The notes under the pieces: generated by a model
Seen by the model: only the letters and a program-made list of their open reading frames with translations
The model's database searches: none
Told to the model about the DNA's origin: nothing
Origin: Vampirovibrionaceae bacterium NZW_1234
GTDB taxonomy: Bacteria; Cyanobacteriota; Vampirovibrionia; Vampirovibrionales; JAGQHJ01
Reading direction: 5' to 3'
DNA: 64,000 nucleotides
NCBI GenBank assembly: GCA_041697335.1
Contig: JBGUGD010000030.1
Coordinates: forward strand, 176,291-240,290
Position numbers and translations under genes: made by a program
In this document: piece after piece, positions 8,618 to 39,828 of the stretch
Layout of the letters: each line of letters opens with the position of its first letter
How positions within the stretch are numbered: the stretch's first letter is position 1

Positions 8618-9424
8618 ATGTCACAGCTGATTCGAATTGAGGTTACGTATCCGACAGCCAGGGTGATTTTGGCTCGGCCGGAACTTCACAATGCGTTTAA
8701 CGATGCGATGATTTCGGATTTGGATTCGGCATTTCAATGTTTAGGCCAAGATCCTCAGGTACGGGCCATTATTCTGGCTGCTGAAGGCAAGTCATTTTGT
8801 GCCGGGGCTGACTTGAACTGGATGAAGTCGATGTTGGATTACACCTTTGATGAAAATGTGGCCGATGCACATCGCTTGGCGACGATGTTGCGGACCATTG
8901 CCGAGTGTCCCAAGCCTGTTATTGGGAGGATTCATGGGCCTGCCTTTGGCGGGGGCGTCGGGTTGACCAGTGTGTGTGATATGGCGGTTGCCGTTGCTTC
9001 TGCTTCCTTTTGTTTGAGTGAAGTGAAGCTGGGGCTTTTGCCGGCTGTGATATCGCCCTTTGTGTTGGCAAAAATGCCTGTGGCCCAAGCACATCGATAT
9101 TTTCTAACAGCCGAGCGCTTTAGTGCCCAAGAGGCACATCGTATCGGGTTGATTTCGGCCGTGGTGGCTGATGAGGCTGAACTGGACAGCACCATTGATG
9201 GCTGGGTGAAGGCTATCTGTCAGAATGGCCCGGAGGCAGTGGCCTTGTGCAAGACACTCATTCATGAGGTTTCCGAGCGGGACTTGGATGACGCAATTAC
9301 GCTTGCGACTCATCGTATTGCCGATCGGCGGATCAGTGAGGAAGGTCAGGAAGGCATGCGGGCTTTCTTGGAAAAGCGGCCGAGTCGATGGGTGGCTGTG
9401 GAGCCCGGGGCCCATGTTTCGTAA
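8618..9424 (+). CDS. liuC: Methylglutaconyl-CoA hydratase (crotonase family)
   Basis: FCAGADL, AFGGGVGL, LSEVKLGLLPA; ATG 8618 after AAGGA RBS; operon context. Confidence 0.88.
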   Translation: MSQLIRIEVTYPTARVILARPELHNAFNDAMISDLDSAFQCLGQDPQVRAIILAAEGKSFCAGADLNWMKSMLDYTFDENVADAHRLATMLRTIAECPKPVIGRIHGPAFGGGVGLTSVCDMAVAVASASFCLSEVKLGLLPAVISPFVLAKMPVAQAHRYFLTAERFSAQEAHRIGLISAVVADEAELDSTIDGWVKAICQNGPEAVALCKTLIHEVSERDLDDAITLATHRIADRRISEEGQEGMRAFLEKRPSRWVAVEPGAHVS

Positions 9425-10913: not shown

Positions 10914-10918
10914 GGAAG

Positions 10919-11461
10919 ATGGCAAATGTGACTTTGATTTCGGCAAGAGATGCCTCTTCTCATCAGGTGGTCTGTGAACGGCTCCCTGAAGGAACAGTCC
11001 GGGTTCGTCTTGAGGATAGGGAGCTTGAGCTCTGGGTTCATTGGGACACTCCAACCTGGGGATGGGCCAGGAATCTACAAACAGGGGAAGTCCATGCCGT
11101 TGGGTGTGTGATCCAGGAGGATGAGGTCTATCTCTGGCTGGATGGGGGTACCTATCGGTTTACACGTCAATCTCCCCAAGCAAAACGGCGTCAGGGAGGA
11201 GCGGCCGGTGGGCCTGCTTCAGGGGATGTGAAAGCCCCAATGCCTGGCGCTATTTTGAAGGTTTTGGTTTCTGAAGGTGAGACTGTGGAGGCCAATACAC
11301 CCCTTGTTTTGATGGAGTCCATGAAAATGGAAATGTCACTGACAGCCCCCATTGCAGGGGTGGTGAGCGCTGTGGCGTGTTCTCCCGGTCAAATGGTTGA
11401 AATGAATATGGTCCTCATTCAACTCAGACAGGAGGGAGCGGATGGTTCTGAAAACGCCTAA
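10919..11461 (+). CDS. Biotin carboxyl carrier protein with N-terminal linker domain (split MCC alpha C-terminus)
   Basis: APMPG and ESMKME biotinylation motif. Confidence 0.88.
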   Translation: MANVTLISARDASSHQVVCERLPEGTVRVRLEDRELELWVHWDTPTWGWARNLQTGEVHAVGCVIQEDEVYLWLDGGTYRFTRQSPQAKRRQGGAAGGPASGDVKAPMPGAILKVLVSEGETVEANTPLVLMESMKMEMSLTAPIAGVVSAVACSPGQMVEMNMVLIQLRQEGADGSENA

Positions 11462-12368
11462 GGCCGTTCAAATTGTTGAAGTTGGGCCTCGTGACGGCCT
11501 GCAGAATGAATCAGCGGTGATTCCCGTTTCGGAAAAATTGGCCTTTATTGATCTTTTGGCCCAAAGTGGGTTGAGCCAGATTGAAATCACGTCTTTTGTC
11601 CATCCAAAGCGGATTCCACAGCTTGCGGATGCCATGGACGTATGCCAAGGTGTTGTTCCTCGAGATGGTTTGGTTTATTCGGCCTTGGTACCCAATATGA
11701 AGGGCCTGGAACGTGCCATTGAGGCCGGTATCAATCGTATTGCCGTCTTTACGGCTGCGTCTGAAACGTTTACGCAAAAGAACATTAATATGTCCATCCA
11801 AGAGTCTTTGGACACCTTTCAGCCCGTGGTTGAGGCTGCTTTAAATCACGGGATGTCCGTTCGGGGCTATGTTTCGACCTGTTTTGTCTGCCCATATGAA
11901 GGGGATGTGGCTCCTGAGAAGGTGGCCTCCGTTACGCAAGCCCTTGTTGCCATGGGCATTGATGAGGTGTCTTTGGGCGATACGATCGGGGCTGCTGCCC
12001 CGACGGATGTCTACCAGGTGTTGGAACCCCTGATGGCCTTGGTGCCGGTTGAAAAGCTTGCGTTGCATTTTCATGATACCTATGGGACGGCTTTAGCCAA
12101 TGTGGTGGCGGGTTTGGAGTTGGGTGTCACGACCTTTGACTCCTCTGCAGGTGGCTTGGGGGGCTGTCCCTATGCTCCCGGGGCATCCGGGAATCTTGCA
12201 ACCGAAGACCTGGTCTACCTGTTATCGCGAATGGGGATTCACACGGGGGTGAATTTAGAGGCCCTGGCAAACGCCTCTCGCCGAATACAACGTGTTCTGA
12301 ATCGCTCTCTTCCCAGTAAGCAGTTACAGCGTTTGGCGGCCTGTGATGTGCCGCAACCGGTGGAATGA
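11442..12368 (+). CDS. liuE: Hydroxymethylglutaryl-CoA lyase
   Basis: EVGPRDGLQNE, HFHDTYG, GLGGCPYAPGASGNLATED. Confidence 0.95.
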   Translation: MVLKTPKAVQIVEVGPRDGLQNESAVIPVSEKLAFIDLLAQSGLSQIEITSFVHPKRIPQLADAMDVCQGVVPRDGLVYSALVPNMKGLERAIEAGINRIAVFTAASETFTQKNINMSIQESLDTFQPVVEAALNHGMSVRGYVSTCFVCPYEGDVAPEKVASVTQALVAMGIDEVSLGDTIGAAAPTDVYQVLEPLMALVPVEKLALHFHDTYGTALANVVAGLELGVTTFDSSAGGLGGCPYAPGASGNLATEDLVYLLSRMGIHTGVNLEALANASRRIQRVLNRSLPSKQLQRLAACDVPQPVE

Positions 12369-12997
12369 CCTTAGATCTGCCCCCCGGTTTTTGGCTGGAC
12401 TCGGTGGATTCCACCCAAGATGAAGCGCGTCGCCTGATTGCCGCAGGTCGGATTTCTGGAACGGCCTTTGTTTATGCCAGTCATCAAACTGCCGGGCGAG
12501 GGACCAAGGGGCGGGTCTGGTCTTCTCCGAAAGATCGGGGTGTGTACCTGTCGGTGGTCCATCGAGCCCCTCAAAATGAGGGGTTTGTGGTAACCCCCAT
12601 CTATACCATGGCTGCCGGGGTGGCGTGTGTTGAAGCCTTATTGGCTACGACAGGGGTTAAAGTCGCTTTAAAGCCCATTAATGATTTATATGTCGATGGC
12701 CAAAAACTCGGGGGTATCCTGGTAGAAAGTGATGTTGCTTCCTACGGCTTGACTTCCCTCATTACCGGCATTGGAATTAACACTCATACTGAATACCATA
12801 CGCTGGATCGGCCGGTGGTCACGCCCGTGGCGCTGGAAGCGCTGATGGCTCCGGACGCTTTTTTAGCCTTAAACCTCGATACTGTTGTGGAAACCCTAGT
12901 AGCCAAAGTTTGTTTTTGGTACGGCTTGGTTTTTAGTGGGCAGGAAGGCCAGGTTAGCCGGGCCTGGGAGCGTCATGTGTTGCCTGAATTAGCCTAG
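12365..12997 (+). CDS. birA: Biotin--protein ligase (no HTH domain)
   Basis: DSTQD, QTAGRGTKGRVW, KPINDLYVDGQKLGGILVE, GIGIN. Confidence 0.9.
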   Translation: MTLDLPPGFWLDSVDSTQDEARRLIAAGRISGTAFVYASHQTAGRGTKGRVWSSPKDRGVYLSVVHRAPQNEGFVVTPIYTMAAGVACVEALLATTGVKVALKPINDLYVDGQKLGGILVESDVASYGLTSLITGIGINTHTEYHTLDRPVVTPVALEALMAPDAFLALNLDTVVETLVAKVCFWYGLVFSGQEGQVSRAWERHVLPELA

Positions 12998-19320: not shown

Positions 19321-19515
19321 TAATACCGCCAATAGGCTTTTTAAGAGGAACCTTAGCTCTTCAAGTCGTGAAATAAAACTTTACTTGACATTGTGATAAG
19401 TAAGTTTGATCATAAGTCAGTTATTATTCATATCACGAATAATAAATTAATTCTTTTCTATAACCTCTTAAACAGGCAGTATCGCATTAGGTAGTTGCAG
19501 AGTGAGATAGCAATA

Positions 19516-21768
19516 ATGAGAATAGCGAACTTAACTTCAGGGAATATGTTGCAGCGCACCAATCGGGGTGAGCAAGGTACAAAAAAAGTGGCACAGGGTA
19601 AACTGGGGACTCAGTCTCCTTCGATGCCGACTGGCTATATGTCACTTTATGATAACGCTGGCCTTGCTGGGGTTCGATTCGGTGTTTCACTGAAAGGTGT
19701 TTTAAGTAAATTCACCAACGCTGAATTTGATATTGCAGGCACCATGGCGCTTGAGCGCGAAGTGCCCATGCTGGACTACCTGAATGAGGTGGTGGATAAA
19801 CCCGCTTTGCAGCGAAATACCAAACAGCGTATCTATGACATGATCACAGCCCGTGGAACGGACGATAAAAAAGTTCTGGGGCGTGAAGTGAAGACCTACA
19901 AGTTTTTTACCGAACCTGACAATCCTGATGATGCCTTATTAGGTATGGAAGAACAGCTTCATACTGTTGTTGAACATTTACAGCAAGCAGCTTTGGGGAC
20001 CGATGCCGGTAAAAAGCTTTTAATTCTGGTGGGTGGTCCTGGTAGCGGTAAGTCTACCGTCGCTCGGATTATTGTTCGAGGGTTGGAAAACTATTCTCGA
20101 ACTGCCGATGGCGAACGCTACACGCTGAAATGGAAGTTACCTAAAGATGTGGCTCGCGCCATTGGTTTTGATAAACAGGAGTTTGTGGAAGAGGTCTACA
20201 CTGATCCCGTCAAGCTGTTGCCTCTTGAAATGCGAAAAGATTTGGAAAAAACGTTAAACCGCAATAGCAAATTGCCCTATCCGATTAAGTTGTCCAAAGA
20301 AGGGTTACCACCGGCCTCTCAAAAGCTTTACGACAAATTGCTGGCGTATGAAATTCAAAATGGTGGTCAAGATGGTGCTTTTGAGCGAGTTCTGCAAAAA
20401 TATGCAATGGCCAAACGCTTTAAGGTCAGCTCTGTCCACCGGACCGGTTCGGGTAGCTTAGCCGCTGTTGATGGAAAGAGCTTAGACGTGACCCACATGT
20501 CCGGGGGCTCCAAAATGATTAAAGCGGCCACCTCCAGCGAAGGGGATCCGTGGGCCTATGATTTTGCCTCCGGTGAACTGTTTGCGGCTTCCGGTGGGGT
20601 CATGGAATTTATCGAAATTCTGAAGCTGGATAAAGAGCACTTGTTGCCCATCTTGACGCTGAACGAAGAAGGCAAGGTGAAGCCCTCCAAGCAGCCACAG
20701 GTGGAAGTAGACGAATTTGTTATTGCCCACACCAACTTGCCGGAATACGAAGCCAAGGCGGCTGATCCGGAAATGGCGGCAACCTGGGATCGGATGAAGA
20801 TCGTTCGCTTCCCCTACAATACGGCAATTAGCTCTGAGCAGGCCATCTATGAGCGCAGCTTGCCTCTCTTGCATCAGCAAGGTATCAATGTTGCTCCGCA
20901 TACGATGCGTACGGCTTCCTTGTGGGTCATCTTGAGCCGACTGCTGCCAGCCAAGGATCGGAAGTTTGATCCCTTGACCAAAGCCCGTCTTTATAATGGC
21001 GAGCCGAATAAAGATATCGGGATGGCCGAAATTCGGGCCCTGAAAAAAGAAGGTGTGAAGGGCCGTGAAGGGATGGAAGGCATCTCGCCTCGGAAATTGA
21101 AAGATAACGTTATTCCGGCAATTATGACGCATCCGGATGTTCAGAAAACCAAATCCATTGATGGTTATGGTGTTTTGACCATTATTCGGGATAAGTTGGA
21201 TTCCGGTGAAATTGAGTTGGAAGGCGAAGTGAAAGACAAAGCCTACCAAAACCTGGAAATTGCTTTAAAAGATTTGGATGAGCACGTGAAAGAAGATGTC
21301 ACGGAAGCCATTGCCGGGGATCGGGATAACCTCAATGCCATCTTGGATGAATACCTGCGTAACGTGGAAGCCTTTGTGGATAAGAAAGATGTGAGCGATT
21401 GGCGTGGGATTTCCTCTGGCCCCAGTGAACAGCTGATGCAATCCATCGAAAAGAAGATGGGGGTTTCCGACAATCGGACACACCGCCAAAAGCTGAATGC
21501 CATCTTAGGTTCCTATCGTCGTGATGGTAAGCCTATTGATCTGGATCTGTTCCCGGATATTAAAAAGGCCATTGTCCAACATGAGTTGGAACAATTGGAG
21601 CGCAACATTCCATGGAAGGCCTTGTGTACCACGGAGCCGTTGTCCACCAAGAAACAAGAAGATTATCGCCAGGGTGTCATTGGCAACCTGAAGAAAAAGG
21701 GGTACGACGAAGAGTCTGCACGTCACGCGCTGGCTCGGGTTGGTTCTCTGTTCAACACCAATAAGTAA
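19516..21768 (+). CDS. prkA: PrkA/YeaG-family AAA+ ATPase with N-terminal RFG leader
   Basis: Walker A GGPGSGKS, GVMEFIEILKLD, VIAHTNLPEY, FPYN, GMEGISPR, terminal KGYDEESA; leader ends GVRFG. Confidence 0.9.
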   Translation: MRIANLTSGNMLQRTNRGEQGTKKVAQGKLGTQSPSMPTGYMSLYDNAGLAGVRFGVSLKGVLSKFTNAEFDIAGTMALEREVPMLDYLNEVVDKPALQRNTKQRIYDMITARGTDDKKVLGREVKTYKFFTEPDNPDDALLGMEEQLHTVVEHLQQAALGTDAGKKLLILVGGPGSGKSTVARIIVRGLENYSRTADGERYTLKWKLPKDVARAIGFDKQEFVEEVYTDPVKLLPLEMRKDLEKTLNRNSKLPYPIKLSKEGLPPASQKLYDKLLAYEIQNGGQDGAFERVLQKYAMAKRFKVSSVHRTGSGSLAAVDGKSLDVTHMSGGSKMIKAATSSEGDPWAYDFASGELFAASGGVMEFIEILKLDKEHLLPILTLNEEGKVKPSKQPQVEVDEFVIAHTNLPEYEAKAADPEMAATWDRMKIVRFPYNTAISSEQAIYERSLPLLHQQGINVAPHTMRTASLWVILSRLLPAKDRKFDPLTKARLYNGEPNKDIGMAEIRALKKEGVKGREGMEGISPRKLKDNVIPAIMTHPDVQKTKSIDGYGVLTIIRDKLDSGEIELEGEVKDKAYQNLEIALKDLDEHVKEDVTEAIAGDRDNLNAILDEYLRNVEAFVDKKDVSDWRGISSGPSEQLMQSIEKKMGVSDNRTHRQKLNAILGSYRRDGKPIDLDLFPDIKKAIVQHELEQLERNIPWKALCTTEPLSTKKQEDYRQGVIGNLKKKGYDEESARHALARVGSLFNTNK

Positions 21769-21798
21769 CGCCTTTTTCAGCCAATCAGGAGAACGTTC

Positions 21799-23862
21799 AT
21801 GATACAGGTGTTGTATCGGAATCCGATTCATAATTTGCCTATGGCGAAAACCGTGAAGGTGCAGCGCCCTACAAAGGCTCTTCCTCAAGCGGTTGTTCGC
21901 TCCGGCTCGGCCTTGGCCAAGGTGTCCTCTGTGCCGCTTACTGCGACGCAATGGCAGGCCTATGTCTTGCCAAAATCCGATCGGCAAACCCGCTTTGGGA
22001 TGAACTCGGATATTTTCTCTCCCGGTGATATCCTACTGGGCGATCATCCTCCGGATGATGAGCTGGATGAGCTGGATGCGTCTCGTAAGTACCAGTGGGA
22101 TATTATGACCCGGTCTCGGCCCGGATTCCCTCAAGGATGGCTACAACCGGAAGATACCGTATTTGTGGTCACCGATCAGATGCGGATGATGCAGGCCAAT
22201 GCCCGAAATGGGTTTCCGCTTCGCTATAATCACTATAGCTGGGGTGAGGCCTTTAACCGGCTCTATCAAATGCAGGGCCATGGGTTGATGCGGATTTACG
22301 AAAGCGTCATCAATACCAAGCCTTCGGTTGCCTATTTGTTGGATTTCAATCCGGTCTATGCACAGAAGCTGGTTATCGGACACGTGTTTGCACACACCGA
22401 CTTCTTTAAGAATAATATCCGGTTCCAGGACTCGAACCGAGACATTATGCGAGTTATGGCCGACAATAAGCGCGCCATTGCCAAATATGCCTCTGACCCG
22501 ATGATTTTACGTAAAAGCGTCGGGAAAACCACCCCGGTGGAGCGGTTTATTGATGATTATAAGACGATGGAATGGCTCATTGACATGAGTAAATCCGCAC
22601 CGCCGCCACTAACCCCCTATGGGCAGGCAACGGATCCATCTACGGTGGCTCAGGTGGATTTGGACATGGGGTTAAGCCGTCAAAAACTTGGCTTGGGTGG
22701 CTTGATGCGAGACTTTATTGTCTCTGAAGACGAGCGTTCGAAAGCCGTAGATGATGCGCTGACCCGTCGGGAAAATCGAATCAAAAACATTCCGCCAGAA
22801 CCCACGCGAGATGTCTTGGGCTTTTTAATTCAGCACTCTAAGTCGCTTGAACCTTGGCAGCGGGATATTTTAACCCGTCTTCGCGAAGAATCGTACTACT
22901 TTGCTCCTCAGATTCAAACCAAGGTTATGAATGAGGGGTGGGCGACCTGGTGGCATACCCGAATGGGTGCTGAAGGGGTCTATAAACCGGATGAGATGGT
23001 TCCGGTTGCCAAGATGATGGCCGGTGGTGAAGCTCATGACCCTCAGGGGCTTAACCCTTATTTGGTGGGTCGCACCATTTTCCATAATATCTATGAAAAA
23101 GCGGGGCGGGGTATTCCCATTGATGTGCCCGAGGAAGAACTGGTTAAACGCTATAGTATTGATGAGCTGATGGCGCTGAAAAAGAAACCCATTGACGATG
23201 AGTTGGGCATCAAGGCCATTCAGCATGTGCGCAAATATGAAGATGATATGTCGTTCTTGCGCAAATATTTAACCGAGGACGTTGCCCGTGAATTGGGTCT
23301 GTACAATTACGAAGAGGTAACCGATTTCCGGGGTAATACGGAAGAGGTTGTGACTTCCAAAGATTTCAATGCGGTCAAATCTCGGATTCTTCAAAATTAT
23401 GACAATGGCGGTATGCCTATCATTGAAGTCGTCAATGGGGACTATCGCGGTCGCAGTGAATTGTTGCTGCGTCATGTCCATCTGTTCCAGGATCTGAATC
23501 GCAACGACGCCAAAGAGACGTTGAAATCGGTTTATCGGATGTGGGGTATGCCGGTTCACCTGGATACCTTCTACACCGCACCCGTGGATCCCAACCTGAT
23601 TAACAGTTTGGTTCAATCGATCCGTAATGCCCGACAATATGGCCAAGGCAAAGCCTATTGGCGTGGCAGTGAAAAGACGTTACAGGAAATGGAACAAGAG
23701 TTGCATAAACTGCAATCCAACAAGACGAAAGTCCCCATCCGATTCTCGACCGAAGATGGGAAGGATGTGTCCATTCGCGTCCTGAATGACAAAGGGGATA
23801 CCACCAAAAACTTCGATCCCAAAGATTTCGTGATTAAGGCAGACAGCGATTGGTATTGGTAG
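21799..23862 (+). CDS. spoVR: SpoVR/YcgB family protein with N-terminal RFG leader
   Basis: GFPLRYNHYSWG, IYESVIN, GHVFAHTDFFKNN, YFAPQIQTKVMNEGWATWWH, NPYLVG. Confidence 0.92.
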   Translation: MIQVLYRNPIHNLPMAKTVKVQRPTKALPQAVVRSGSALAKVSSVPLTATQWQAYVLPKSDRQTRFGMNSDIFSPGDILLGDHPPDDELDELDASRKYQWDIMTRSRPGFPQGWLQPEDTVFVVTDQMRMMQANARNGFPLRYNHYSWGEAFNRLYQMQGHGLMRIYESVINTKPSVAYLLDFNPVYAQKLVIGHVFAHTDFFKNNIRFQDSNRDIMRVMADNKRAIAKYASDPMILRKSVGKTTPVERFIDDYKTMEWLIDMSKSAPPPLTPYGQATDPSTVAQVDLDMGLSRQKLGLGGLMRDFIVSEDERSKAVDDALTRRENRIKNIPPEPTRDVLGFLIQHSKSLEPWQRDILTRLREESYYFAPQIQTKVMNEGWATWWHTRMGAEGVYKPDEMVPVAKMMAGGEAHDPQGLNPYLVGRTIFHNIYEKAGRGIPIDVPEEELVKRYSIDELMALKKKPIDDELGIKAIQHVRKYEDDMSFLRKYLTEDVARELGLYNYEEVTDFRGNTEEVVTSKDFNAVKSRILQNYDNGGMPIIEVVNGDYRGRSELLLRHVHLFQDLNRNDAKETLKSVYRMWGMPVHLDTFYTAPVDPNLINSLVQSIRNARQYGQGKAYWRGSEKTLQEMEQELHKLQSNKTKVPIRFSTEDGKDVSIRVLNDKGDTTKNFDPKDFVIKADSDWYW

Positions 23863-23871
23863 GGGTGACGT

Positions 23872-25662
23872 ATGATTATTAATCAACTTGGACAATTCAT
23901 ACAGAAACCGACAAACACGGCTCGCCCCAGTGTTTCTCGGCGACCTGTGATGCCTGCGCTGAACCAGGATCTGTTTCAAATCTCCAGAGCGCAATCGGGC
24001 CAGAGTCGGCAAGTTCGTTTTTCGGGCGATGACGATGGCATGACCGATCCGGATACCAAGCGTTTCTGGGATATTGTCAAAGGTGTTGAGACGCCGGAGC
24101 ACTTGCTGGATCAAATTACCCGAGGCGGTTTAAAAATTGGCCAGGATGGTGGTGTGACGTTGCCGATGCCGACCATTAACCGCCCCACGTTCTCTTATAA
24201 ACCCAATAGCGATAGCAATGATGATGGCGACGGCGATGGCGATGGGGATGGTCAAGGTGGACCAGGACAAGGCCCCGGTAAAGGTGGCGGTGTTGGGAGC
24301 AATCCTGGTGCCGGACCAGGTGACGTCATTGGTCAGGATGGCGATGGCGAAGGTGATGGCCAAGGTGGCAAAGGTGCTGGCCAAGGCGGTGGTGGTGGTG
24401 GCCGTGAAAAATGGGAACGCCGCCTCACGGGAACCGAAGTTGCGAAATTGCTTGAGCAATTGGAACTCCCCTATTTGCAAGACAAAGGGCGGGGCCAGTT
24501 CCAACATGCCGGAATTCGGTGGAATAACAAGCGTCAACCGCCGCCGGGGATCCCGCTCAGAGAGTCGTATGATCCGGCCATTGCACGTGAAACATTCCAC
24601 GTGAGTCAGGAACAAAAGAAGTTTATTGGCGAGCTTTATCAGGTGGCCTTTGGGCGAGAGCCTCAGGATGACGAGCTGGATTATTGGAAAGACGTACTCA
24701 AGGAGCTTGAGGCGGATAACCAGATGGATCTGGAAAACGTTGAGCCGTTGTTGATTGGCGAGTTTTTAACCTCGGAGCAGTATCAACAGCAGTTTGGCGG
24801 CAAAACCGATAAGATGATTTCGGATGCCTACAAGCTGGCCATCGGCAAAGCGCCTTCTCGTCATGGGATTGAACTCTGGAGCAGCAAATTGGAAACCGGC
24901 TTAACGGTTAAAGATATGCCGCTTGCGCTTTACCAGATGTTTGGCGACAAGATGGACAGCCGACGTCGGAATATCGTTTTTAATCCCGATAATCTGATTA
25001 TTGCACCCAAGGAAGTGCGACGCATTGACTGGAAAGAACACAAGAAGCCTTTTTCTCAGGCCGTTATTTTCTATGTCATGGATGTTTCCGGATCCATTTC
25101 CGATCAGGATAAAGAAATGGCCCGGATGAACAACTACTTGCTCTCGACCTGGGTGAAATACCAGTATGGTTTGAAAGTGGCCAAGATGCAGGGCAAAAAG
25201 TACAACGACAAAGAATTTTTCGGCAAAAGTGTCGCTGAGCGTCATATCATTTTTACCGAGACTGCCAAAGAAGTGGATGCCGATGAGTTTTACACCACCT
25301 CTCAATCCGGTGGAACCAGTATTTCATCGGGGTTGAAGATGGTCGAAGAGATTATTGACAAAGATTATCCGCCCAAGGATTGGAACGTGTATGTGTTTGT
25401 TTATAGTGACGGGGACTCTTGGAGCGACAACGATAAGTCCGTCAAGATTATTCAGGACTTGGAGAAAAAAGGGATTAATCTCATGGCATACGGTCACTTA
25501 GGGCAACGAAGCAGCATTTCCGGCAGTAATTTTGCCAATGTGCTCAATGAAAAATTCAAGGAATCCAAGACCGTGCGTCTTGCTGTCCTGGATCGTCCTG
25601 AGATGAAAACCTATAAAGAAGCCATAAAAGCCATGTTGGCGAAAGAGAAGGAGGCTGTGTAA
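23872..25662 (+). CDS. yeaH: YeaH/YhbH (DUF444) vWA-domain protein with leader and inserted DUF4214-like domain
   Basis: Gly/Asp-rich linker, LELPYLQDKG, MDVSGS MIDAS, SGGTSISSG, YPPKDWNVY, SDGDSW; leader ends QVRFSG. Confidence 0.88.
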   Translation: MIINQLGQFIQKPTNTARPSVSRRPVMPALNQDLFQISRAQSGQSRQVRFSGDDDGMTDPDTKRFWDIVKGVETPEHLLDQITRGGLKIGQDGGVTLPMPTINRPTFSYKPNSDSNDDGDGDGDGDGQGGPGQGPGKGGGVGSNPGAGPGDVIGQDGDGEGDGQGGKGAGQGGGGGGREKWERRLTGTEVAKLLEQLELPYLQDKGRGQFQHAGIRWNNKRQPPPGIPLRESYDPAIARETFHVSQEQKKFIGELYQVAFGREPQDDELDYWKDVLKELEADNQMDLENVEPLLIGEFLTSEQYQQQFGGKTDKMISDAYKLAIGKAPSRHGIELWSSKLETGLTVKDMPLALYQMFGDKMDSRRRNIVFNPDNLIIAPKEVRRIDWKEHKKPFSQAVIFYVMDVSGSISDQDKEMARMNNYLLSTWVKYQYGLKVAKMQGKKYNDKEFFGKSVAERHIIFTETAKEVDADEFYTTSQSGGTSISSGLKMVEEIIDKDYPPKDWNVYVFVYSDGDSWSDNDKSVKIIQDLEKKGINLMAYGHLGQRSSISGSNFANVLNEKFKESKTVRLAVLDRPEMKTYKEAIKAMLAKEKEAV

Positions 25663-25664
25663 CG

Positions 25665-28394
25665 ATGGTTGACTCCATTTCTTTTTCTTCTTTGCCAGCG
25701 TTGGTTCGGCGTCGGTCGCTGTCGACCCCGGTAATGCCCAGAAAACCCATTGTGGTTACCCCGGGGTTAAAATCCTCAGCGTTTGGGTTGGCCAAGGGTG
25801 TTCATTACCAGGCCTATGCCTTGCCTCGTTTCTCAGCGGCAAACACGACACCCGTTGTGAAAGAAGCGCCAGCCCAAACCCAAAGTGGCGCTGCTGCTGA
25901 AAACGCTGAAGCCCAGGCGGATGCGTTGCTGAGTAAAATCACGACCGACACGAAGGTAAAATTCAAAGAAACCAAGCCGATGATGAGCTTGAAAGAGTTT
26001 ATCTCGCTGGTTTACCAAGATCCCTATAAATACCTGCCTACTGCCAGTCACTATGCGGTTCGCGGTTTGAAGTCCTTCGGAACCGAGAATAAACGGGTGA
26101 TGGGTGAAGATGTGGTGGCGCACAAGTTTGTGAAAGCGCCCTGGAAATCCCAAGCCTTAAACGAAATTCCCGGGCTCCTGGGTCAAGATGAGGTGATTTC
26201 TCAGATTATTGAAACCCTGGAAGATTTTTCCCGAACCGGGAAGCAGAATCGGATGATTTTGCTTGTCGGCCCCAAAGGCAGCGGAAAAAGTGAAACCTGG
26301 CGCCTGGTCTCCAAGGCCCTGGAACTCTATTCACATCGACCTGAAGGGGTGCGCTATACGTTGAACTGGGTCTTCCCCAAGAGCAATCCCTTCGATATTA
26401 TTCGCCCCTTAATGACGGAAGACGATTACAATCAGTGGGAAAAGACCAAGCAAGGCTCTTCTACCGTATTGTCTCCCAAAAATATCGGGGCACTTCTAGA
26501 GTCTAATTTAAATATTCACCCGCTGTTCTTGTTGCCGGTTCAGGATCGCGAAGCTTTAATCCAGGATCTGCACCGCCGGGGTAAGATTCAGAATACGGCT
26601 GAATTTAGTTACTTCATCAACGGTAAACTGGATTCCTACTCCCAGAAGATTCTTGATGCTCTGACCGAACACTACGACGGGGATATGAGCAAGGTGTTCA
26701 ACCACGTGATGGTCGAGCGCTGGACGATGTCTGAACAAAGTGGTAAGGGTCTTGGCATGGTGCCGCCTGCGGCAAACCGAGATGCGATGTTAAAACAGGT
26801 GACTCCCGATGTTCGATGGGATAGGTTCCCAGCCTTCCTGCAACGAGCTGGCCTGATGAAACTGGTGGGAGCCTTGCCCAATGCCAATGGCGGCTTGTTT
26901 AACATGGAAGATATGGGCCGTAACATGGACCCGACCCGTTATGTGTATCTCCTGATCACCGGCGAAACAGGGGAGACCATTATTGACACCCATGGCCAGG
27001 ATGATGCATCCACAGTTCGTGAACAATTGGATGTGGTTTTTGTAGGCAGCGCCAACCCGGAAAGCATCTTAAAAATGATGAAAGAAGGGCAATGGGATGC
27101 TTTGTCGAAGCGGACCAAATTGATTTATGTGCCGTATTTGCGCCAATATCGTGAAGAAGCCCAGATTTACGAACCCTTGCTGGCCAATCAGCGTCAACGG
27201 GGTCGAAAGATCGATCCGTTTGTCAATGAAGCCTTCCCGTTGTTTTTGACGACCACGCGTTTGCTGCCCGTCAATGCAGATAATGCGGCTTATAAAAAGG
27301 TCAATAGCGATGAATTGACAGAAGGCTTGAAAAAGCTCGATCCGTTACGCAAGGCGTTGCTGTATCAAGGGGAAGATTTAAATTCCTTTGAAAGTTCGCC
27401 GAATAAGGTGCCGCCTTTTGAACGACGGATTCAAGAAGCCCTGCATGATCATGTGGCCCTGGTCAAACATGAGCATGACCCGGATTCTCGCTCGGACATT
27501 GTCTCGAACTTTGAAGGCAGTCATGGCATCGATCCTCGTGAAGGTGAGGATTTGATGAAGCGGATATTAAACTATGATCCGGAGTCGCCGGTGACGGTCT
27601 TGACGATGTTTCAAGCTCTTGCCGATGTGGTCAAAACGGATATGAAATATCAGCAGGATTTGGTGCAAGCCATTAAAATGGATCCCAATTTCTTTGGCAA
27701 GTTTCAGAAGCCCGGGGCCAAGAAAGATGAAAGCCCGGCCTTTGTTCCGACGCCCATTGATTTGCTGAAGATGGTCGAGGGCCATATGCGACGGAAAATG
27801 CAGGTGGAAATCAAAGAGGCCTTGAAGGTCTATCATGAGCCCAAGATCTATGCCGACCAGATTCGCAAGTATATGGCCCATGTTGAGGCCCGTAACAATA
27901 CGACTGAAATAGACGATCCGGAGCTGCGTTCACCAACATCCACGGATAAAACACCCGATCCGAATTTCATGAAGCGAATTGAATTGATTATTGCGCCTAG
28001 TGCCGTGAAATCGGATAAGGATTTAGAAACCTTCCGGCTGGAAATGATGGGCCGTCAAAAGCGATGGGATCGGAGCCAATCCGTACAGGACAACATCTTG
28101 CGGATTTATGAGCCCGAGGTAAAAACCTTGATGACCCATGATGAAACCAAGTTCCAGGAACACCTGGATCGGTTGCTGGCCGATCTGCCCAAGGTCTTGC
28201 GTAATCCCAATATTTACGACAACCAGGCCGATAAAAAAGATCATGTGGAACAAATTTTAGGAGGTATTGCAAAACTCACCGAGCGCGGTATACCCAAGGA
28301 AGCGTTGCCTCAAATGGTGGAGTGGGCCTTTGATCCGGCTCGAAACTTTATCTCCGATGGTACATTTAAAATTAGGAGGCCCTCGCAGTCATGA
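25665..28394 (+). CDS. Second PrkA/YeaG-like AAA+ ATPase with leader
   Basis: Walker A GPKGSGKS, GALPNANGG, GSANPE, VPYLRQYREEAQIY, EGSHGIDPRE; leader ends LPRFSA. Confidence 0.85.
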   Translation: MVDSISFSSLPALVRRRSLSTPVMPRKPIVVTPGLKSSAFGLAKGVHYQAYALPRFSAANTTPVVKEAPAQTQSGAAAENAEAQADALLSKITTDTKVKFKETKPMMSLKEFISLVYQDPYKYLPTASHYAVRGLKSFGTENKRVMGEDVVAHKFVKAPWKSQALNEIPGLLGQDEVISQIIETLEDFSRTGKQNRMILLVGPKGSGKSETWRLVSKALELYSHRPEGVRYTLNWVFPKSNPFDIIRPLMTEDDYNQWEKTKQGSSTVLSPKNIGALLESNLNIHPLFLLPVQDREALIQDLHRRGKIQNTAEFSYFINGKLDSYSQKILDALTEHYDGDMSKVFNHVMVERWTMSEQSGKGLGMVPPAANRDAMLKQVTPDVRWDRFPAFLQRAGLMKLVGALPNANGGLFNMEDMGRNMDPTRYVYLLITGETGETIIDTHGQDDASTVREQLDVVFVGSANPESILKMMKEGQWDALSKRTKLIYVPYLRQYREEAQIYEPLLANQRQRGRKIDPFVNEAFPLFLTTTRLLPVNADNAAYKKVNSDELTEGLKKLDPLRKALLYQGEDLNSFESSPNKVPPFERRIQEALHDHVALVKHEHDPDSRSDIVSNFEGSHGIDPREGEDLMKRILNYDPESPVTVLTMFQALADVVKTDMKYQQDLVQAIKMDPNFFGKFQKPGAKKDESPAFVPTPIDLLKMVEGHMRRKMQVEIKEALKVYHEPKIYADQIRKYMAHVEARNNTTEIDDPELRSPTSTDKTPDPNFMKRIELIIAPSAVKSDKDLETFRLEMMGRQKRWDRSQSVQDNILRIYEPEVKTLMTHDETKFQEHLDRLLADLPKVLRNPNIYDNQADKKDHVEQILGGIAKLTERGIPKEALPQMVEWAFDPARNFISDGTFKIRRPSQS

Positions 28395-29671
28395 CCGTTG
28401 CTCTGACCCCAGTGAATCAGTTTGTGTCCTCACGTTTATTGGCCAGTAAAGGGGGTGTTTCTCCCAAGCGGCCTGTATCCCGCCAGCCGCGTTTTGCCGG
28501 TCAATTCAGTCAGCCAGTAACGGCACCGGTATCCAATCAGCAATTGGTGTCGGCGCTCAAGGGCCAGGTTAAGTTTGGCTCCTTGGGACAACTGATCAGT
28601 ATTGCCCCGGGGTATAAGTTGGGTGAAGCTCGGGCAGCTCATAACCAGCCCCTGAATCGGATGCCCAGCATTATTTTGGAAAGCGCCACCGGCGATAAAA
28701 TCGCGATCGATCCGGTTTCGGCCAATTTTGAGCGCAATATTATCGAGTTTACCGAAGATTTTAATCAAGACTCGGCTCGCGCCTTTAATGCCCAGGTCGA
28801 TTTTCTGAAAAACAAAATCCTGGATAAACGTGCTAAGGGCGAAATTAAAGACCCCAGTGAAGAAACGGTTCATATTTACATCAATAGCCCGGGTGGGATG
28901 ATTATCTCGCTTTATGCCATGATCGATGCTGTTGATACGTTGAAAAAAGCCAATATCCCCGTGGCTACCTACTGCCGTGGCATGGCTGCCAGTTGCGGTT
29001 CGGTATTGTTTGCCCTGGGTACTCCCGGCCAGCGTTATATGACCCCCCATGGGCGTGTTTTGGTGCACCAACCGTTGGGTGGAAGTTATGGTCAGGCAAC
29101 GGATATCGGGCTTCAGAACGAAGAAATTCAAGAGATGAAAATTAAGCTGACCGATATTTTGTCCCTCTCTGCGCTGGAGGGCAAAATCATTCGATTGCAG
29201 AAAGAAGTGGATCGCCTGTCGGAATCCGAAAATCAGTGGTCCCCGAATGTACAGGCCCGGCAAAAGCAAATTGCGCAATTTGAGGCGGAGAAAGTTCGGA
29301 TTCGTAAAACCCAGGAAGCTCGCACTCAACAGAAAATTTACATTACCCAGGCCGAAATGCTGAAAGCAGAAGACCGGAGTCAAGAAGCCGAAGAGGCCTT
29401 GGCTAAAGGCCAAAAGCTCGTAACCGATACCATTGCAGCCGTCACCAGCGAAGCCCGTGAGCAGGAGCGTCAGCGTTTAACCGAGGTGATTGCCAATTCC
29501 GATGGTGCGACGAAGACTACGGCAGAACGAGAATTGAGACGCTTGGATGATCGCAAGGTCCCCTATAGCTCGACTCGCGAACGTATGGCCCAAGTCATGG
29601 AGCGCGATCGCTGGTTGACTGCTGAAGAAGCCGTTGAGTACGGCTTAGCGGACGGTATTGTCACCCGCTAA
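28391..29671 (+). CDS. clpP: ClpP-family serine protease with leader and large coiled-coil insertion
   Basis: IYINSPGG, GMAASCG (Ser), VHQPLGG (His), ERDRWLTAEEAVEYGLAD (Asp); ATGA overlap with upstream gene. Confidence 0.88.
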   Translation: MTVALTPVNQFVSSRLLASKGGVSPKRPVSRQPRFAGQFSQPVTAPVSNQQLVSALKGQVKFGSLGQLISIAPGYKLGEARAAHNQPLNRMPSIILESATGDKIAIDPVSANFERNIIEFTEDFNQDSARAFNAQVDFLKNKILDKRAKGEIKDPSEETVHIYINSPGGMIISLYAMIDAVDTLKKANIPVATYCRGMAASCGSVLFALGTPGQRYMTPHGRVLVHQPLGGSYGQATDIGLQNEEIQEMKIKLTDILSLSALEGKIIRLQKEVDRLSESENQWSPNVQARQKQIAQFEAEKVRIRKTQEARTQQKIYITQAEMLKAEDRSQEAEEALAKGQKLVTDTIAAVTSEAREQERQRLTEVIANSDGATKTTAERELRRLDDRKVPYSSTRERMAQVMERDRWLTAEEAVEYGLADGIVTR

Positions 29672-29806
29672 GTGGTTTTTCACACGCACCCTCGATTGAC
29701 TTGATTCAGATCCCCGTATTGTCGCTGCTGCTGGGCTCGTGTCTTGTGATTCTTTCAGGTACAATGGCCCAACATGGGCCGTATTGATACGAGAGAGGAG
29801 CGTTTT

Positions 29807-31333
29807 ATGAAGGTGGTTGCGAAATCCGGTAATGTATTGACCAGTGATGCTGACGCCTTGGTGGTCAACTTGTTTGAAGGCGTAACCCAGCCGGGGGGTG
29901 GCACGGGAGCGGTGGATCAGGCCTTGGATGGGGCGATTCGCCAAGAGATTGAACATGGCAAGGCCTTTAAAGGCAAACTGGGCGAAACCCTGATTTTGCC
30001 CACCTATGGAAAGCTTCCTGCACGCTATGTGGTGGTAGTTGGCTTAGGCAAGGCAGAGGATTGCAAAAGCCTGCAACTGCGTCGAGCGAGTGCTGCTGCG
30101 ATTCGCGCCTGTCAAAAACTCAAGGTGTCTTCGGTAGCCACCTTGCTTCATGGGGCTGGGATTGGTCAAATTGATGCTCAGGCAGCGGCTCGGCTCTTGG
30201 CCGAAGGAGCCATTCTCGGCAATTACCGCTTCACGTTGAGAAAGACCAAAGACCCAGCGGATGAGCCTGTGTCCATTGACACGCTCACCGTGGTCGAACA
30301 GGATCAAGCAAAGCTGGGTGCGATTGAGACCGGTTTGCGGTGGGGGGCGGCCATTGCCCAAGCCACGTGCCAGGCGCGCGATTGGGTACAGGACAGCCCC
30401 AACTACGTAACGCCCACATTTTTGGCAGAGCAAGCCCAAAAACTGAAGGGCGGGCAAGTGCAATGTCAGGTTTTGGACAAGGCCGAAATTGAAAAGCTGG
30501 GTATGGGGTCCTTTTTAAGTGTGGCTCGCGGCAGTGTGGAGCCCCCTAAGCTGATTCATTTGACCTACACGCCTGCGACCGGCACGCCCAAAAAGAAAGT
30601 GACCTTGGTGGGCAAGGGAATTACCTTTGATAGTGGGGGGTTGTCCTTAAAGCCAGCTGCGTCCATGGAACTGATGAAAAACGATATGACGGGTGCTGCG
30701 GTGGTCATTGCCACGATGCGGGCTCTGGCGGAACTGGGTGACCTGGATATCCAGGTGGATGTTGTGGCCCCATGCTGTGAGAACATGCCCAGTGGTCAGG
30801 CTAATCGTCCGGGAGACATTGTGACGGCCATGAACGGGAAGACCATTGAGATCAACAACACCGATGCTGAAGGTCGGCTGATCCTCTGTGATGCTCTGGT
30901 GTATGCCCAAAAACACATTCAGCCGGATGAGCTCATTGATCTGGCGACCTTGACAGGGGCATGCATTATGGCCTTGGGCAAAGAGGCCTCGGGCATTATG
31001 GGCACCGATGACAGCCTGTTAGAAGCAGTCAGAAAAGCCGGAAATGTGGCAGGTGAAAGATTCTGGCCATTACCGCTTTTTGATGAATTCAAGGACATGC
31101 TTAAAAGCGATGTGGCTGATCTGATTAATGCCGGCAGCAAAGGCCAAGCCGGGTCTTCTGCAGGTGGGATGTTTTTAAAAGCCTTTATCGAGGATAACCA
31201 AAAGTGGGTTCATCTGGACATTGCCGGGCCTTCCTGGACCGATCGCGATGTGCCCGAAGTCCCCAAAGGCGGTACGGGTGTGGGTGTACGAACATTACTA
31301 TACTATTTGTATCAGATTGCAGAAGTGTCTTAA
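29807..31333 (+). CDS. pepA: Leucyl aminopeptidase (M17)
   Basis: GKGITFDSGG, MKNDMTGAA, NTDAEGRL, DLATLTGA, HLDIAG; GAGGAG RBS before ATG 29807. Confidence 0.95.
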   Translation: MKVVAKSGNVLTSDADALVVNLFEGVTQPGGGTGAVDQALDGAIRQEIEHGKAFKGKLGETLILPTYGKLPARYVVVVGLGKAEDCKSLQLRRASAAAIRACQKLKVSSVATLLHGAGIGQIDAQAAARLLAEGAILGNYRFTLRKTKDPADEPVSIDTLTVVEQDQAKLGAIETGLRWGAAIAQATCQARDWVQDSPNYVTPTFLAEQAQKLKGGQVQCQVLDKAEIEKLGMGSFLSVARGSVEPPKLIHLTYTPATGTPKKKVTLVGKGITFDSGGLSLKPAASMELMKNDMTGAAVVIATMRALAELGDLDIQVDVVAPCCENMPSGQANRPGDIVTAMNGKTIEINNTDAEGRLILCDALVYAQKHIQPDELIDLATLTGACIMALGKEASGIMGTDDSLLEAVRKAGNVAGERFWPLPLFDEFKDMLKSDVADLINAGSKGQAGSSAGGMFLKAFIEDNQKWVHLDIAGPSWTDRDVPEVPKGGTGVGVRTLLYYLYQIAEVS

Positions 31334-37560: not shown

Positions 37561-39828
37561 TTGTTCGTGATAGTCCCTGTACATCACGTCCCGGCACAAT
37601 CAAGTGTTGTCCCCCCGAAAGCAAAAGGCTACGGGTACCCGCCAAAACACACCTATCTCCCAGCAGTTCAACACAATAGCCTATTTACCGCCCCCCGATT
37701 CGGGACGGATAAGGAAGTGCATCGCACTGGGGAGACGAAGTTTATTCATGTCTTGCAACATGCGGCAGCCCCCTTTCGAGAATTGCTGCAAGGGCTCGCA
37801 TTGGCGGTTCGCCGTTTTGGTCAATGGTTGGGCAATGTCTGGTTTCGGATTATGCGCATGGTGTCTCCGGTTTCGGTGCCCCAGCTGCGTGATGCTCTCA
37901 ACCCGTTGATGGTTCAAGCTCAACATCGGTTCCCCATTCCCATGGTTCGTGCCAAGCTCCTCAAAGAAGGGTCGCCGGATGCGCTTTTGCCCTATCGGGA
38001 GTTGGAGCGCCGCTATCGGCGGAATCCGGAGCAGCGGGTACGCTTGCTGGAAAACTTTGTGACCTCCGAAGCCACGGCTTATTTGGCCAGCCATCTGCTG
38101 GCCTTGCAGGAAGCCATCCGAAATCCGGGCCAACCCCTGCGGATTGATCGAAGCCACATCCCCGCGGCGGTTCGGATGGGGGTGGATGATGCCAATGCCA
38201 TCGTGGCCCGGCGCACCAAAGAATTGCTTTATGCCAAGGACAAGCAGCCCATTGCGGACAACCTGTATAACCTGATTCTGGAGTCACCCAAGGTGGCCTT
38301 GCACGAGCATTATCGTGGGTGTGCGCCCATGGCCATGGTGCGGGCGTGGTTTATGGCCCAGAATGACCCCATTGCCTTTAAGTCCAATGATGAGTTGGAA
38401 GAATACTGCCGGATTGATCGTCTGTTTACCCCGGACGGCGAGGGCCCGCTGTATCAACCGAGTTTGGATCGATACCGCTGGAAGAACGACAATATCGTCT
38501 CGGTCTCCATTAATTCAACGGAGACGGCGTATATGGCGGCCTATATGTATACCCTTCGTTCCGGGTTGGAAAATGTCCGCTACTTCGAGTATCGCCTAAA
38601 CCCCATCAGTAAAGGGGTAAAGGACTCTATCGCCTACGCAAAGGCCATCCAGCAGGGTATTCACGATGGCAAGATGTTTCTCAAGGAATCTCGGGGGCAG
38701 GATATTGATGCCAACCTGATCTATTCCGCCGACCGGCAGCCCAAACCCGGGGTGGAGGTGAACAATCCGCTGGCGCCAAAGATTGATGATCGGATTTGGC
38801 TGGCGATGAAGATTATTGTTCTGGCCATCAAGTCTCGTCTGATGGGGATGCATGTGACCGGGTTTGATGTTCAGGGCTCTGAAGCCAACTACGCCATTAT
38901 GGACTTTGAACCCGTGGCTCGGATGCTGGCCCGTTGGAATCGGGTGGCCAAGGCCATGAACCAGATGAAGATGCCGGGCTGGGAGAAGGACTACCGTGTG
39001 GGTGCAACGCTTCACTCGGGTGAAACGCCACTGTCCGGCTTGATTAGCCATAAAGATGCGCCCATTACCGGGGCCGAATCTGTGGAGCGTTCCGTGGAGC
39101 TGTTCACCCGGAAGGACACCTCGCCCATGAATCTGATGGCCGTGGGGCAGGCGATTCAACAGTTACTCAAGACCCCGGACACGCAACTGGATGACGCCAC
39201 CACCTTACGGGTCATCGATCTGCTGTTGCCCAAGGAGGACCGACGGAAACTGGGGACAAGTCGCGGGGCCTTGAAAGCCGAATCCCAGGCCATGCCTGCG
39301 CCCAATGAGCTGCCCCCGGATCAGGACCCGGACATTGATACCCCGGTGCGCATTGGCCATGGGGTGCAGCTGAAGTTCGGGCCGCGTTGGTTGATTGATG
39401 CCTGCTGGAAGCACAAGATTGGGTTTGAACAATGTCCCAAGAGCAATGTGCAGACCGGGGCCGTGTCCTACTATAACGAATTGCCCACCCTGGTGATGTC
39501 TCGTCCCCGGGACGAGGGCCACGGGTTGATGGTGTCCATCAGCCGCGATAACGGGACGACCTCCAAGACGAATATGCCCAACGAACTGGTGAAGTTGACC
39601 CGTCACCTGAAGGCCCGTCACGAGGATCGCAAGCGCTTCCAGATCAACGGGATTCAAACGGCCTTTCTCTTTGACCCGGAGCTAAAGACCAAGATTCGCC
39701 AGGAGATGTTACAGCGCTTCCACCGTCTGGAGTCTCGCCCGGCTTATGGTGAAGTCATTCGTCACGAGCAGGATCCACGTCTGTTTAAGCGGCTGATTGA
39801 AAATCGCCGGGGGGCTCACACGGCCTGA
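37561..39828 (+). CDS. Adenosine/AMP deaminase-superfamily protein with RFG leader and N-terminal extension
   Basis: PKVALHEHYRG, VRYFEYRLNP, TLHSGET, RIGHG, EQCPKSN, ISRDN motifs; leader ends APRFG. Confidence 0.8.
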   Translation: MFVIVPVHHVPAQSSVVPPKAKGYGYPPKHTYLPAVQHNSLFTAPRFGTDKEVHRTGETKFIHVLQHAAAPFRELLQGLALAVRRFGQWLGNVWFRIMRMVSPVSVPQLRDALNPLMVQAQHRFPIPMVRAKLLKEGSPDALLPYRELERRYRRNPEQRVRLLENFVTSEATAYLASHLLALQEAIRNPGQPLRIDRSHIPAAVRMGVDDANAIVARRTKELLYAKDKQPIADNLYNLILESPKVALHEHYRGCAPMAMVRAWFMAQNDPIAFKSNDELEEYCRIDRLFTPDGEGPLYQPSLDRYRWKNDNIVSVSINSTETAYMAAYMYTLRSGLENVRYFEYRLNPISKGVKDSIAYAKAIQQGIHDGKMFLKESRGQDIDANLIYSADRQPKPGVEVNNPLAPKIDDRIWLAMKIIVLAIKSRLMGMHVTGFDVQGSEANYAIMDFEPVARMLARWNRVAKAMNQMKMPGWEKDYRVGATLHSGETPLSGLISHKDAPITGAESVERSVELFTRKDTSPMNLMAVGQAIQQLLKTPDTQLDDATTLRVIDLLLPKEDRRKLGTSRGALKAESQAMPAPNELPPDQDPDIDTPVRIGHGVQLKFGPRWLIDACWKHKIGFEQCPKSNVQTGAVSYYNELPTLVMSRPRDEGHGLMVSISRDNGTTSKTNMPNELVKLTRHLKARHEDRKRFQINGIQTAFLFDPELKTKIRQEMLQRFHRLESRPAYGEVIRHEQDPRLFKRLIENRRGAHTA

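Follow-up and report, generated by a model that had tools for sequence, protein, structure and literature searches.

A stretch of 64,000 nucleotides from the genome of Vampirovibrionaceae bacterium NZW_1234 (hereafter the window) was found to contain a five-gene operon, prkA1-spoVR-yeaH-prkA2-clpP, that is a real, conserved variant of the PrkA-YeaH-SpoVR module. The window lies on contig C5 of the source genome, G000; L-numbers below denote loci, G-numbers genomes and f-numbers families within the class. The five open reading frames (ORFs) are on the same strand (Table 1), with spacings of 30, 9 and 2 nt and then a 4-nt overlap between prkA2 and clpP, and genes 2–5 are each preceded by purine-rich words resembling ribosome-binding sites. 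In gene order, the Pfam domains are AAA_PrkA and PrkA; SpoVR and SpoVR_C; DUF444 with a DUF4214 insert; AAA_PrkA and PrkA again, with weaker scores; and CLP_protease. The three families of the module are thus present side by side, with a metal-ion-dependent adhesion site (MIDAS) in YeaH. All of the operon proteins scored below the NCBIfam equivalog cut-offs.

An initial annotation of the window, made from its letters and ORFs, had described five co-oriented genes with this spacing, and our coordinates agree with it. Its account of the proteins was borne out as well. Both PrkA-type ATPases have an intact Walker A motif (GGPGSGKST at residue 173 of PrkA1, GPKGSGKSE at 202 of PrkA2), SpoVR is identified by its two Pfam domains, the MIDAS of YeaH is formed by D404-V-S-G-S, GGT at 480 and SDGD at 512, and ClpP has S201, H226 and D406 as its Ser-His-Asp set, the annotation having omitted an insertion of ~130 charged residues before the Asp. 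The RF leader that it reported for all five proteins is present at R54 (RFG), R65 (RFG), R49 (RFS), R55 (RFS) and, in ClpP, R34 (RFA) with K61 (KFG) in addition.

A profile of PrkA2 matched 25 of 301 genomes of the class, in families f1, f3 and f9 only, and none in f5 (0/96), f7 (0/99) or f2 (0/19). Lone prkA2 genes were observed at L121–L124 and L126. In G003 the operon occupies the same chromosomal site, with operon orthologues that are 28–41% identical; in its flanks, PepA is 74% identical, an aldo-keto reductase 58%, and three further genes ~40%. A related-locus search with PrkA2 as the query returned no matches, a homologous-protein search with the A1 query returned only 2, and a search of phages with PrkA2 gave a single partial match. 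At L116 (G181) all four genes are broken into several ORFs, representing either pseudogenisation or an assembly error.

Table 1. Positions of the operon genes, their leaders and other features (window numbering unless a contig is named).
Feature	Position	Strand	Basis or remark
prkA1, canonical PrkA/YeaG(SpdA)-type AAA+ ATPase, 750 aa, leader-bearing	19516..21768	+	PF08298 + PF06798; PDB 9xip; Walker A
PrkA1 leader, VRFG at its end (R54)	19516..19683	+	9xip alignment begins only at residue 70
spoVR/ycgB, gluzincin-fold protein, 687 aa	21799..23862	+	Pfam, alignment, AlphaFold2 model, fold search
SpoVR leader, TRFG at its end (R65)	21799..21999	+	residues 1-70 with predicted local distance difference test (pLDDT) <50
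yeaH/yhbH (DUF444), von Willebrand factor A (vWA)/MIDAS protein, 596 aa, Gly/Asp-rich linker, DUF4214 insert	23872..25662	+	Pfam, motifs
YeaH leader end, VRFSG (R49)	24016-24024	+	
prkA2, divergent paralogue of PrkA, 909 aa, leader disordered over residues 1-80	25665..28394	+	Pfam, AlphaFold model
PrkA2 leader motif, PRFSA (R55)	25827-25835	+	
PrkA2 surface loop, residues 237-266	26373..26462	+	IGF-type tripeptide site in homologues; here FPKSNPFDIIRPLM, without tripeptide
clpP, operon type, 426 aa, S201/H226/D406	28391..29671	+	leader with PRFAG (R34) and VKFGS (K61)
ClpP insertion between His and Asp, ~130 residues, E/K/R/Q/A-rich	29171..29566	+	probable coiled coil, judged from composition
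Sigma-70-like promoter match 5' of prkA1, TTGACA-17-GATCAT (10/12)	19385..19413	+	best-scoring site in region
Second export set, dispersed (L014, L015 on C32)	G000:C32:8784-20950; C8:66046-68536; C29:178730-180600; C30:50448-52826		

The promoter match 5' of prkA1 is weak because the number of such sites in the region (13) equals the mean for shuffled DNA (12.8); promoter and terminator counts around the operon were no higher than in shuffled DNA. A leaderless M17 aminopeptidase gene, pepA (29774-31333), lies 102 nt 3' of clpP in the window and is likewise found 3' of the operon in G003, and not at the other loci; PepA could complete peptide breakdown. Elsewhere in the window, positions 6991-12997 hold an ordinary leucine-catabolism-type operon of six genes (carboxyltransferase, enoyl-CoA hydratase, biotin carboxylase, biotin carrier, hydroxymethylglutaryl-CoA lyase-like protein and biotin ligase). 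Sequencing runs sharing at least a quarter of the DNA words of positions 19500-29400 were labelled as hot-spring or microbial-mat metagenomes (X1–X8), among which the source sample may be included; no RNA run was listed.

PrkA2, its loop and the adjacent clpP

Pfam places both ATPases in the PrkA/YeaG family, with 155 + 119 bits for PrkA1 and 66.5 + 45.4 bits for PrkA2 (AAA_PrkA + PrkA C-terminal domain; cut-offs 25), and both missed the NCBIfam PRK15455 equivalog cut-off of 576 (116.8 and 30.2 bits). By score, the operon PrkAs therefore appear to be divergent subfamilies rather than E. coli-type orthologues. Residues 70-688 of PrkA1 align with PDB 9xip (E 2e-79). PrkA2 belongs to the PrkA families in Pfam and does not have a Clp/Hsp100-type AAA+ domain; in its AlphaFold model, residues 1-80 and loop residues 244-266 have pLDDT values <50.

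Clp ATPases (ClpX, ClpA, ClpC) dock onto ClpP through an [ILVM]-G-[FL] tripeptide, and in ClpX of the source genome this tripeptide lies in KSMGF. A profile search with PrkA2 against 1.84 billion representatives returned leaderless PrkA2 proteins of 730-800 residues. Of the 150 matches listed, 128 had a Walker A that could be found by pattern, 94 had it in the first 150 residues, and the loop could be located in 82. The loop contained an [ILMVF]-G-[FL] tripeptide in 78 of these 82 leaderless homologues, the chance rate being 5.2% per random 24-residue window. In these leaderless homologues the tripeptide was most often IGF (38), LGF (17), VGF (9) or MGF (6) and was mostly placed 10-14 residues past an invariant Trp; of the longer proteins listed, 6 of 13 located loops had it. 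The E. coli-type PrkA sequences inspected have no such loop. The PrkA2 tripeptide would be convergent, because PrkA2 is not a Clp ATPase by fold. The search also brought up a further group of PrkA2 proteins, extended at the N-terminus by acidic stretches in which the F-G motif is mostly absent (P0027, P0029, P0030, P0032–P0036, P0041, P0042, P0092 and P0099); this group may represent independent tagging in another host-associated lineage.

The initial annotation had coupled the PrkA pair to a dedicated ClpP, and a survey of gene neighbourhoods did not refute the linkage that this presupposes. Of the 18 operons whose downstream gene could be seen, 10, across two orders, have clpP immediately after prkA2 (the window, L001, L002, L003, L006, L008, L010, L013, L114 and L115; L125, at a contig end, was left out of this count). 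A profile of the operon-type ClpP matched 9 of the 301 class genomes, each time directly after prkA2, with L010 in addition; no operon-type clpP was found away from prkA2, the 25 chosen genomes otherwise giving only lower-scoring ClpP types. The tripeptide was present in 1 of 10 loci with an adjacent clpP versus 8 of 12 loci without one, the fragmented operon of L116 being left out of the loop count. Close contrasts are provided by L117 (IGF, clpP-less) versus L006 and L010, and by G082, which carries both types of PrkA2. Based on the gene linkage and the family-wide motif, we consider coupling of PrkA2 to ClpP to be probable.

Operon ClpP scored 129.8 bits for PF00574, and its Ser-His-Asp residues are supported by alignment with housekeeping ClpP, in which D406 is opposite the Asp of the 'DTDRD' segment. 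Following E. coli ClpP, we take D406 to be the catalytic Asp. The active peptidase of this family is a tetradecamer, the assembly of which the 130-residue insertion may affect; L008 and L013 have a shorter insertion at the same site. In the source genome a leaderless housekeeping clpP adjoins clpX, and there are no leaderless copies of prkA, spoVR or yeaH. That genome also encodes two proteins of ~720 aa (G000:C14:100628-102808 and C15:42857-44992) that end in a ClpP domain and whose N-terminal half is apparently a second ClpP-like domain; the C15 copy begins with a leader-like region (IRFEG), and matches of similar size occur in relatives.

The AlphaFold2 model of SpoVR (pLDDT 75.7) has the gluzincin fold, and its structural matches were DUF885 proteins and M1, M30, M32 and M4 peptidases, the best with Z 11.4 and a root-mean-square deviation of 3.8 over 192 aligned residues. 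VIA Z values were 11.4–9.3 against DUF885, M1 and M30 proteins, and the top 49 structural matches were nearly all zinc metallopeptidases or relatives of their fold. Foldseek with the same model found nothing within an E-value limit of 0.001, and phmmer against the PDB gave no match. The motifs H195-V-F-A-H199 and N378-E379-G-W supply His, His and Glu ligands for zinc (H195, H199 and E379), and 14 of 16 orthologues retain them. The catalytic Glu of HExxH, in contrast, is Val here and Val, Cys or Ala in 16 of 16 aligned rows. From this predicted structure SpoVR is best interpreted as a peptide-binding receptor with a zinc site, or else as an atypical peptidase. Two three-gene prkA-spoVR-yeaH loci beside clpB (L004, L005) encode SpoVR proteins without the second His and the Glu ligand, and G022 holds both a three-gene locus and the five-gene operon.

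The RF(G) leader and a second flagellum-derived export set

Each operon protein begins with 50–80 extra residues that carry an R/K-F-G/S/A motif. The leader is not specific to the operon complex, and across the genome leaders are high in Ser, Pro, Thr and Arg and low in Asp and Glu. We called 2,913 ORFs in the source genome, taking the first start codon, which gives some genes false extensions. In the first 70 residues of these ORFs the most enriched tripeptide was RFG (192 observed, 43 expected; some occurrences are ordinary domain motifs), and 231 ORFs, ~8%, reached a leader-profile score of at least 6, with 16 expected. The five operon leaders scored -2.0, 9.6, 5.3, 0.3 and 4.7 in gene order and are not the most typical, because only that of SpoVR passes the genome-trained profile. 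A looser motif was found within the first 90 residues in 57 of 63 operon proteins of the window and its order versus 17 of 124 internal windows.

Leader-bearing proteins differ from others encoded in the genome in ways that are consistent with export. A Sec-like hydrophobic stretch was found in 4.5% of 201 high-scoring leader proteins versus 19% of 2,464 others, polytopic proteins numbered 0 of 201 versus 8%, and the rule for the N-termini of Pseudomonas syringae effectors, as we applied it, held for 27% versus 7%. Adjacent pairs of leader genes numbered 36, with 17.9 expected, and for up to 55 of the 231 leader proteins the source genome encodes a paralogue with a lower leader score (an upper bound, as some of the paralogues have weak leaders). 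In a family scan of 68 of 84 cargo candidates from leader-rich regions, 19 had a Pfam family and 49 had none. The cargo includes proteases (S8 subtilase, M41 FtsH-type, Lon, M16 and trypsin), a ClpB-like ATPase, MalQ, NAMPT, phosphoribosyl pyrophosphate (PRPP) synthetase and dehydrogenases. Many of these need ATP, NAD or PRPP, and the destination should therefore be a cytoplasm or organelle; for the operon proteins, one destination for the whole complex is plausible. From its composition, we also considered that the leader might mimic a plastid or mitochondrial transit peptide. Further leader genes in the window (37561-39828, 48177-49139, 49251-51062, 3334-4797 and 43043-44338) encode an adenosine/AMP deaminase-domain protein, two tetratricopeptide repeat proteins and two others with no assigned family.

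A candidate export route is present in the source genome, in which flhA (two copies), fliP/Q/R, flhB, fliI, fliF, fliE, flgC and flgF/G are duplicated. The second set (Table 1) consists of flgF/G, flgB, flgC, a lytic transglycosylase gene, fliE, a fliF-like gene, a 385-aa gene in the position of fliG (with Atlas leads all below 0.9), fliH, flhA2 and fliI2, together with fliP/Q/R2 and an flhB2 adjoining a sigma-factor-like ORF. FlhA2 forms a long branch within flagellar FlhA proteins, outside the SctV clade of classical injectisomes (FastTree split support 100). It was found in 157 of the 301 class genomes, comprising 46 of 48 in the order of the window, 99 of 99 in f7, 10 of 12 in f9 and 0 of 96 in f5, with flagellar FlhA in 14 of the 99 f7 genomes and none of the 12 of f9; five FlhA2-bearing genomes have a FliI-type ATPase without flagellin. 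Of the 25 PrkA2-profile genomes, 23 have FlhA2 and the other two are 56% and 79% complete, but this co-occurrence is weak because FlhA2 is far more widespread. We set aside export by a type IV or type VI system, as no VirB4, no TrbI above cut-off and no VipB were found in the source genome, which is 94.75% complete. A search for CesT chaperones gave no match, but its controls gave none either.

Covariation of the leader with FlhA2 was examined in samples of 120–600 kb, which afford low power, with a leader rule written after viewing G160. In the first samples, the rule gave 5/177 versus 1/174 internal windows for f7 (p 0.11) and 4/180 versus 6/202 for f5, with 1/97 for f2 and 4/157 for f9; fresh samples gave 5/343 versus 2/366 for f7 and 3/307 versus 7/360 for f5, with no significant difference. 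We regard export of the leader-tagged proteins into prey or host via the second type III set as plausible and slightly more likely than not. Searches of an open-access library brought up no account of the leader, the duplicate export set or a PrkA-ClpP link, although the duplicate flagellar genes may be among those in Table S3 of PMC4451040.

Possible function and rival explanations

In E. coli, non-specific bulk proteolysis during starvation depends on YeaG, now named SpdA (PMC13684143); the main text of that paper has 'ClpP' once, in a reference, and does not mention yeaH or ycgB. B. subtilis PrkA is reported to have a slow, ATP-dependent casein-cleaving activity that is sensitive to phenylmethylsulfonyl fluoride (PMC9512850), and PrkA of B. 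anthracis, when highly purified, is reported to be without protease activity (PMC13001217). The need for YeaG in bulk proteolysis and the inactivity of purified PrkA together call for a separate peptidase. ClpP is a candidate for this cutting enzyme missing from the PrkA starvation module.

The best explanation of the whole, which we put forward tentatively, is a ClpP-coupled, ATP-dependent bulk protease that is exported into prey or host. PrkA1, whose YeaG/SpdA type is the one on which non-specific starvation proteolysis in E. coli depends, would join PrkA2 in an AAA+ unfoldase ring, and PrkA2 would be the subunit that docks ClpP by means of its IGF-type loop. Lineages without an operon clpP would have kept the standard tripeptide and would recruit the standard ClpP. 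In those with an operon clpP, including that of the window, loop and ClpP are both altered, and we read the two changes as a private ATPase-ClpP pair that may be drifting away from the standard interface; alternatively, docking may have been lost. YeaH, with its MIDAS, and SpoVR, whose zinc site lacks the catalytic Glu, would serve as adaptor and as a receptor that binds substrate peptides. The RF(G) leaders of all five subunits, disordered and poor in acidic residues, would most likely take them through the second type III system to an ATP-containing compartment of the prey or host, where the complex would turn protein into peptides and amino acids.

If this is true, PrkA2 would represent a new class of ClpP partner ATPase. 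The prkA2-clpP link alone leaves organisms with a single PrkA, such as E. coli, unexplained. The genome-wide leader and the second export set would explain the retention of export genes in gut Gastranaerophilales, which have no flagellum, and would offer an alternative to type IV secretion in Vampirovibrio predation. V. chlorellavorus drives a spike into Chlorella, whose cells are emptied, and excerpts of the paper that reports this propose a plasmid-borne type IV system and do not contain the term 'type III' (PMC4451040). A wider proposal, possible and rather doubtful, is that Vampirovibrionia possess another injection system, which arose from the flagellum independently, uses the RF(G)/x-F-G leader as its signal and is kept even in non-motile gut members. 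Through it the source organism would deliver a few hundred proteins, among them a complete PrkA1-PrkA2-YeaH-SpoVR-ClpP protease that switches on starvation-type self-digestion in prey, with PrkA2 as a ClpP partner outside Clp/Hsp100 that has a convergent IGF loop.

A number of observations weigh against the exported protease. The best fold matches of PrkA2 were BchI, LonC, RuvB and MCM, with ClpA at rank 47 (E 0.0085), and its loop is placed after the Walker A helix, not at sensor 1. Of the coupling claimed in the initial annotation, a PrkA unfoldase feeding a dedicated ClpP, the gene linkage and the tripeptide of the family stand in support, but clpP is optional (8 of the 18 operons do without it) and the loop in the window, FPKSNPFDIIRPLM, has no tripeptide. 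Of the 12 clpP-less loci, 4 also lack the tripeptide, and we give no p-value for the contrast between loci with and without clpP because the loci are related and not independent. A prkA2 of Myxococcota has the loop KGAIGFGG in a gene that is apart from prkA1-yeaH and has no clpP in its 1.5-kb flanks. The large charged insertion in the ClpP of the window points the same way. As regards export, the operon proteins of f9 keep their extensions but just 3 of 27 carry the motif, neither a needle nor a translocon or chaperone was identified, and leader frequency did not differ significantly between FlhA2-positive f7 and FlhA2-negative f5 (5/343 versus 3/307, p 0.42). Finally, we infer the predatory life of the source organism from its relatives, which are predatory, non-photosynthetic members of the cyanobacteria.

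The source genome has only one prkA-spoVR-yeaH set, which fits a role in the organism's own starvation. The same ClpP-coupled protease could work in its own cytoplasm as a SpdA-type starvation machine, with the leader as a chaperone, compartment or turnover tag. This seems to us somewhat unlikely. The proteolytic role of YeaG in E. coli (PMC13684143), the requirement of all subunits for ATP and the non-significant covariation of leader and FlhA2 agree with it, but canonical homologues are leaderless, as many as 55 of the 231 leader proteins, as an upper bound, have a paralogue with a lower leader score, and the operon has diverged from that of G003 much further than PepA has, a difference to be read alongside the three flanking genes at ~40% identity. 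The absence of PrkA2 from the f5, f7 and f2 genomes also indicates that the module is not generally needed. Were all five proteins exported, ClpP could still be independent, co-regulated cargo, PrkA2 docking having been lost and the PrkA/YeaH/SpoVR core remodelling targets alone. The optional clpP, the altered loop of the window, and L011, in which a phosphoesterase-like ORF (identified by eye) takes the place of clpP, are all expected if so, and leader genes form adjacent pairs anyway. We nevertheless judge independent cargo unlikely, since operon-type clpP was never seen apart from prkA2 in the genomes searched and loss of the tripeptide accompanies gain of clpP, not its loss.

It is also conceivable, and quite improbable, that SpoVR is itself the peptidase of the module, an atypical gluzincin using another general base, with ClpP as an accessory. 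SpoVR accompanies PrkA everywhere, unlike ClpP, and its fold relatives and conserved ligands are those of zinc metallopeptidases, but the HExxH Glu is replaced in every aligned row, the ligands are gone in the three-gene loci, and Foldseek found no match up to its threshold. That the leaders are an artefact of start-codon choice, or chance, is barely credible: our ORF caller does add false extensions and some RFG words belong to domains, but gaps of 30, 9, 2 and -4 nt with their RBS-like words permit no other reading of the genes, and the artefact is contradicted further by the RFG enrichment and by the motif in the orthologues.

Comparison with known systems

The second export set resembles non-flagellar type III systems (injectisomes) in having export gate, ATPase and ring genes without flagellin, and the disordered, Ser/Pro/Thr-rich, acid-poor N-termini of the putative cargo recall those of injectisome effectors. 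It differs from injectisomes in that FlhA2 groups among flagellar FlhA proteins, the set still includes the rod genes flgB/C/F/G and fliE, a discrete RF(G) motif is present, and neither a needle nor a translocon or CesT chaperone was found. MoxR-type pairs (RavA-ViaA, CbbQ-CbbO and NorQ-NorD) share with the operon the combination of an AAA+ ATPase and a MIDAS protein, and NorQ and CbbQ are weak fold matches of PrkA2; to our knowledge, those pairs remodel a specific target and include no peptidase.

With ClpXP, ClpAP and ClpCP the operon shares an AAA+ gene adjoining clpP and, in the PrkA2 family, the [ILVM]-G-[FL] tripeptide in a flexible loop. In contrast to these systems, PrkA2 is not of the Clp/Hsp100 type, its loop is elsewhere in the fold, the copy in the window is without the tripeptide, and the operon adds vWA and gluzincin-fold partners. 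The closest likeness is to the PrkA(YeaG/SpdA)-YeaH(YhbH)-SpoVR(YcgB) module, with which it shares the three families, the Walker A, MIDAS and SpoVR motifs, and the alignment of PrkA1 with 9xip. The operon differs from that module in its prkA-spoVR-yeaH order, in a second PrkA of the IGF-loop family, in the coupled clpP and in leaders of 50–80 residues.

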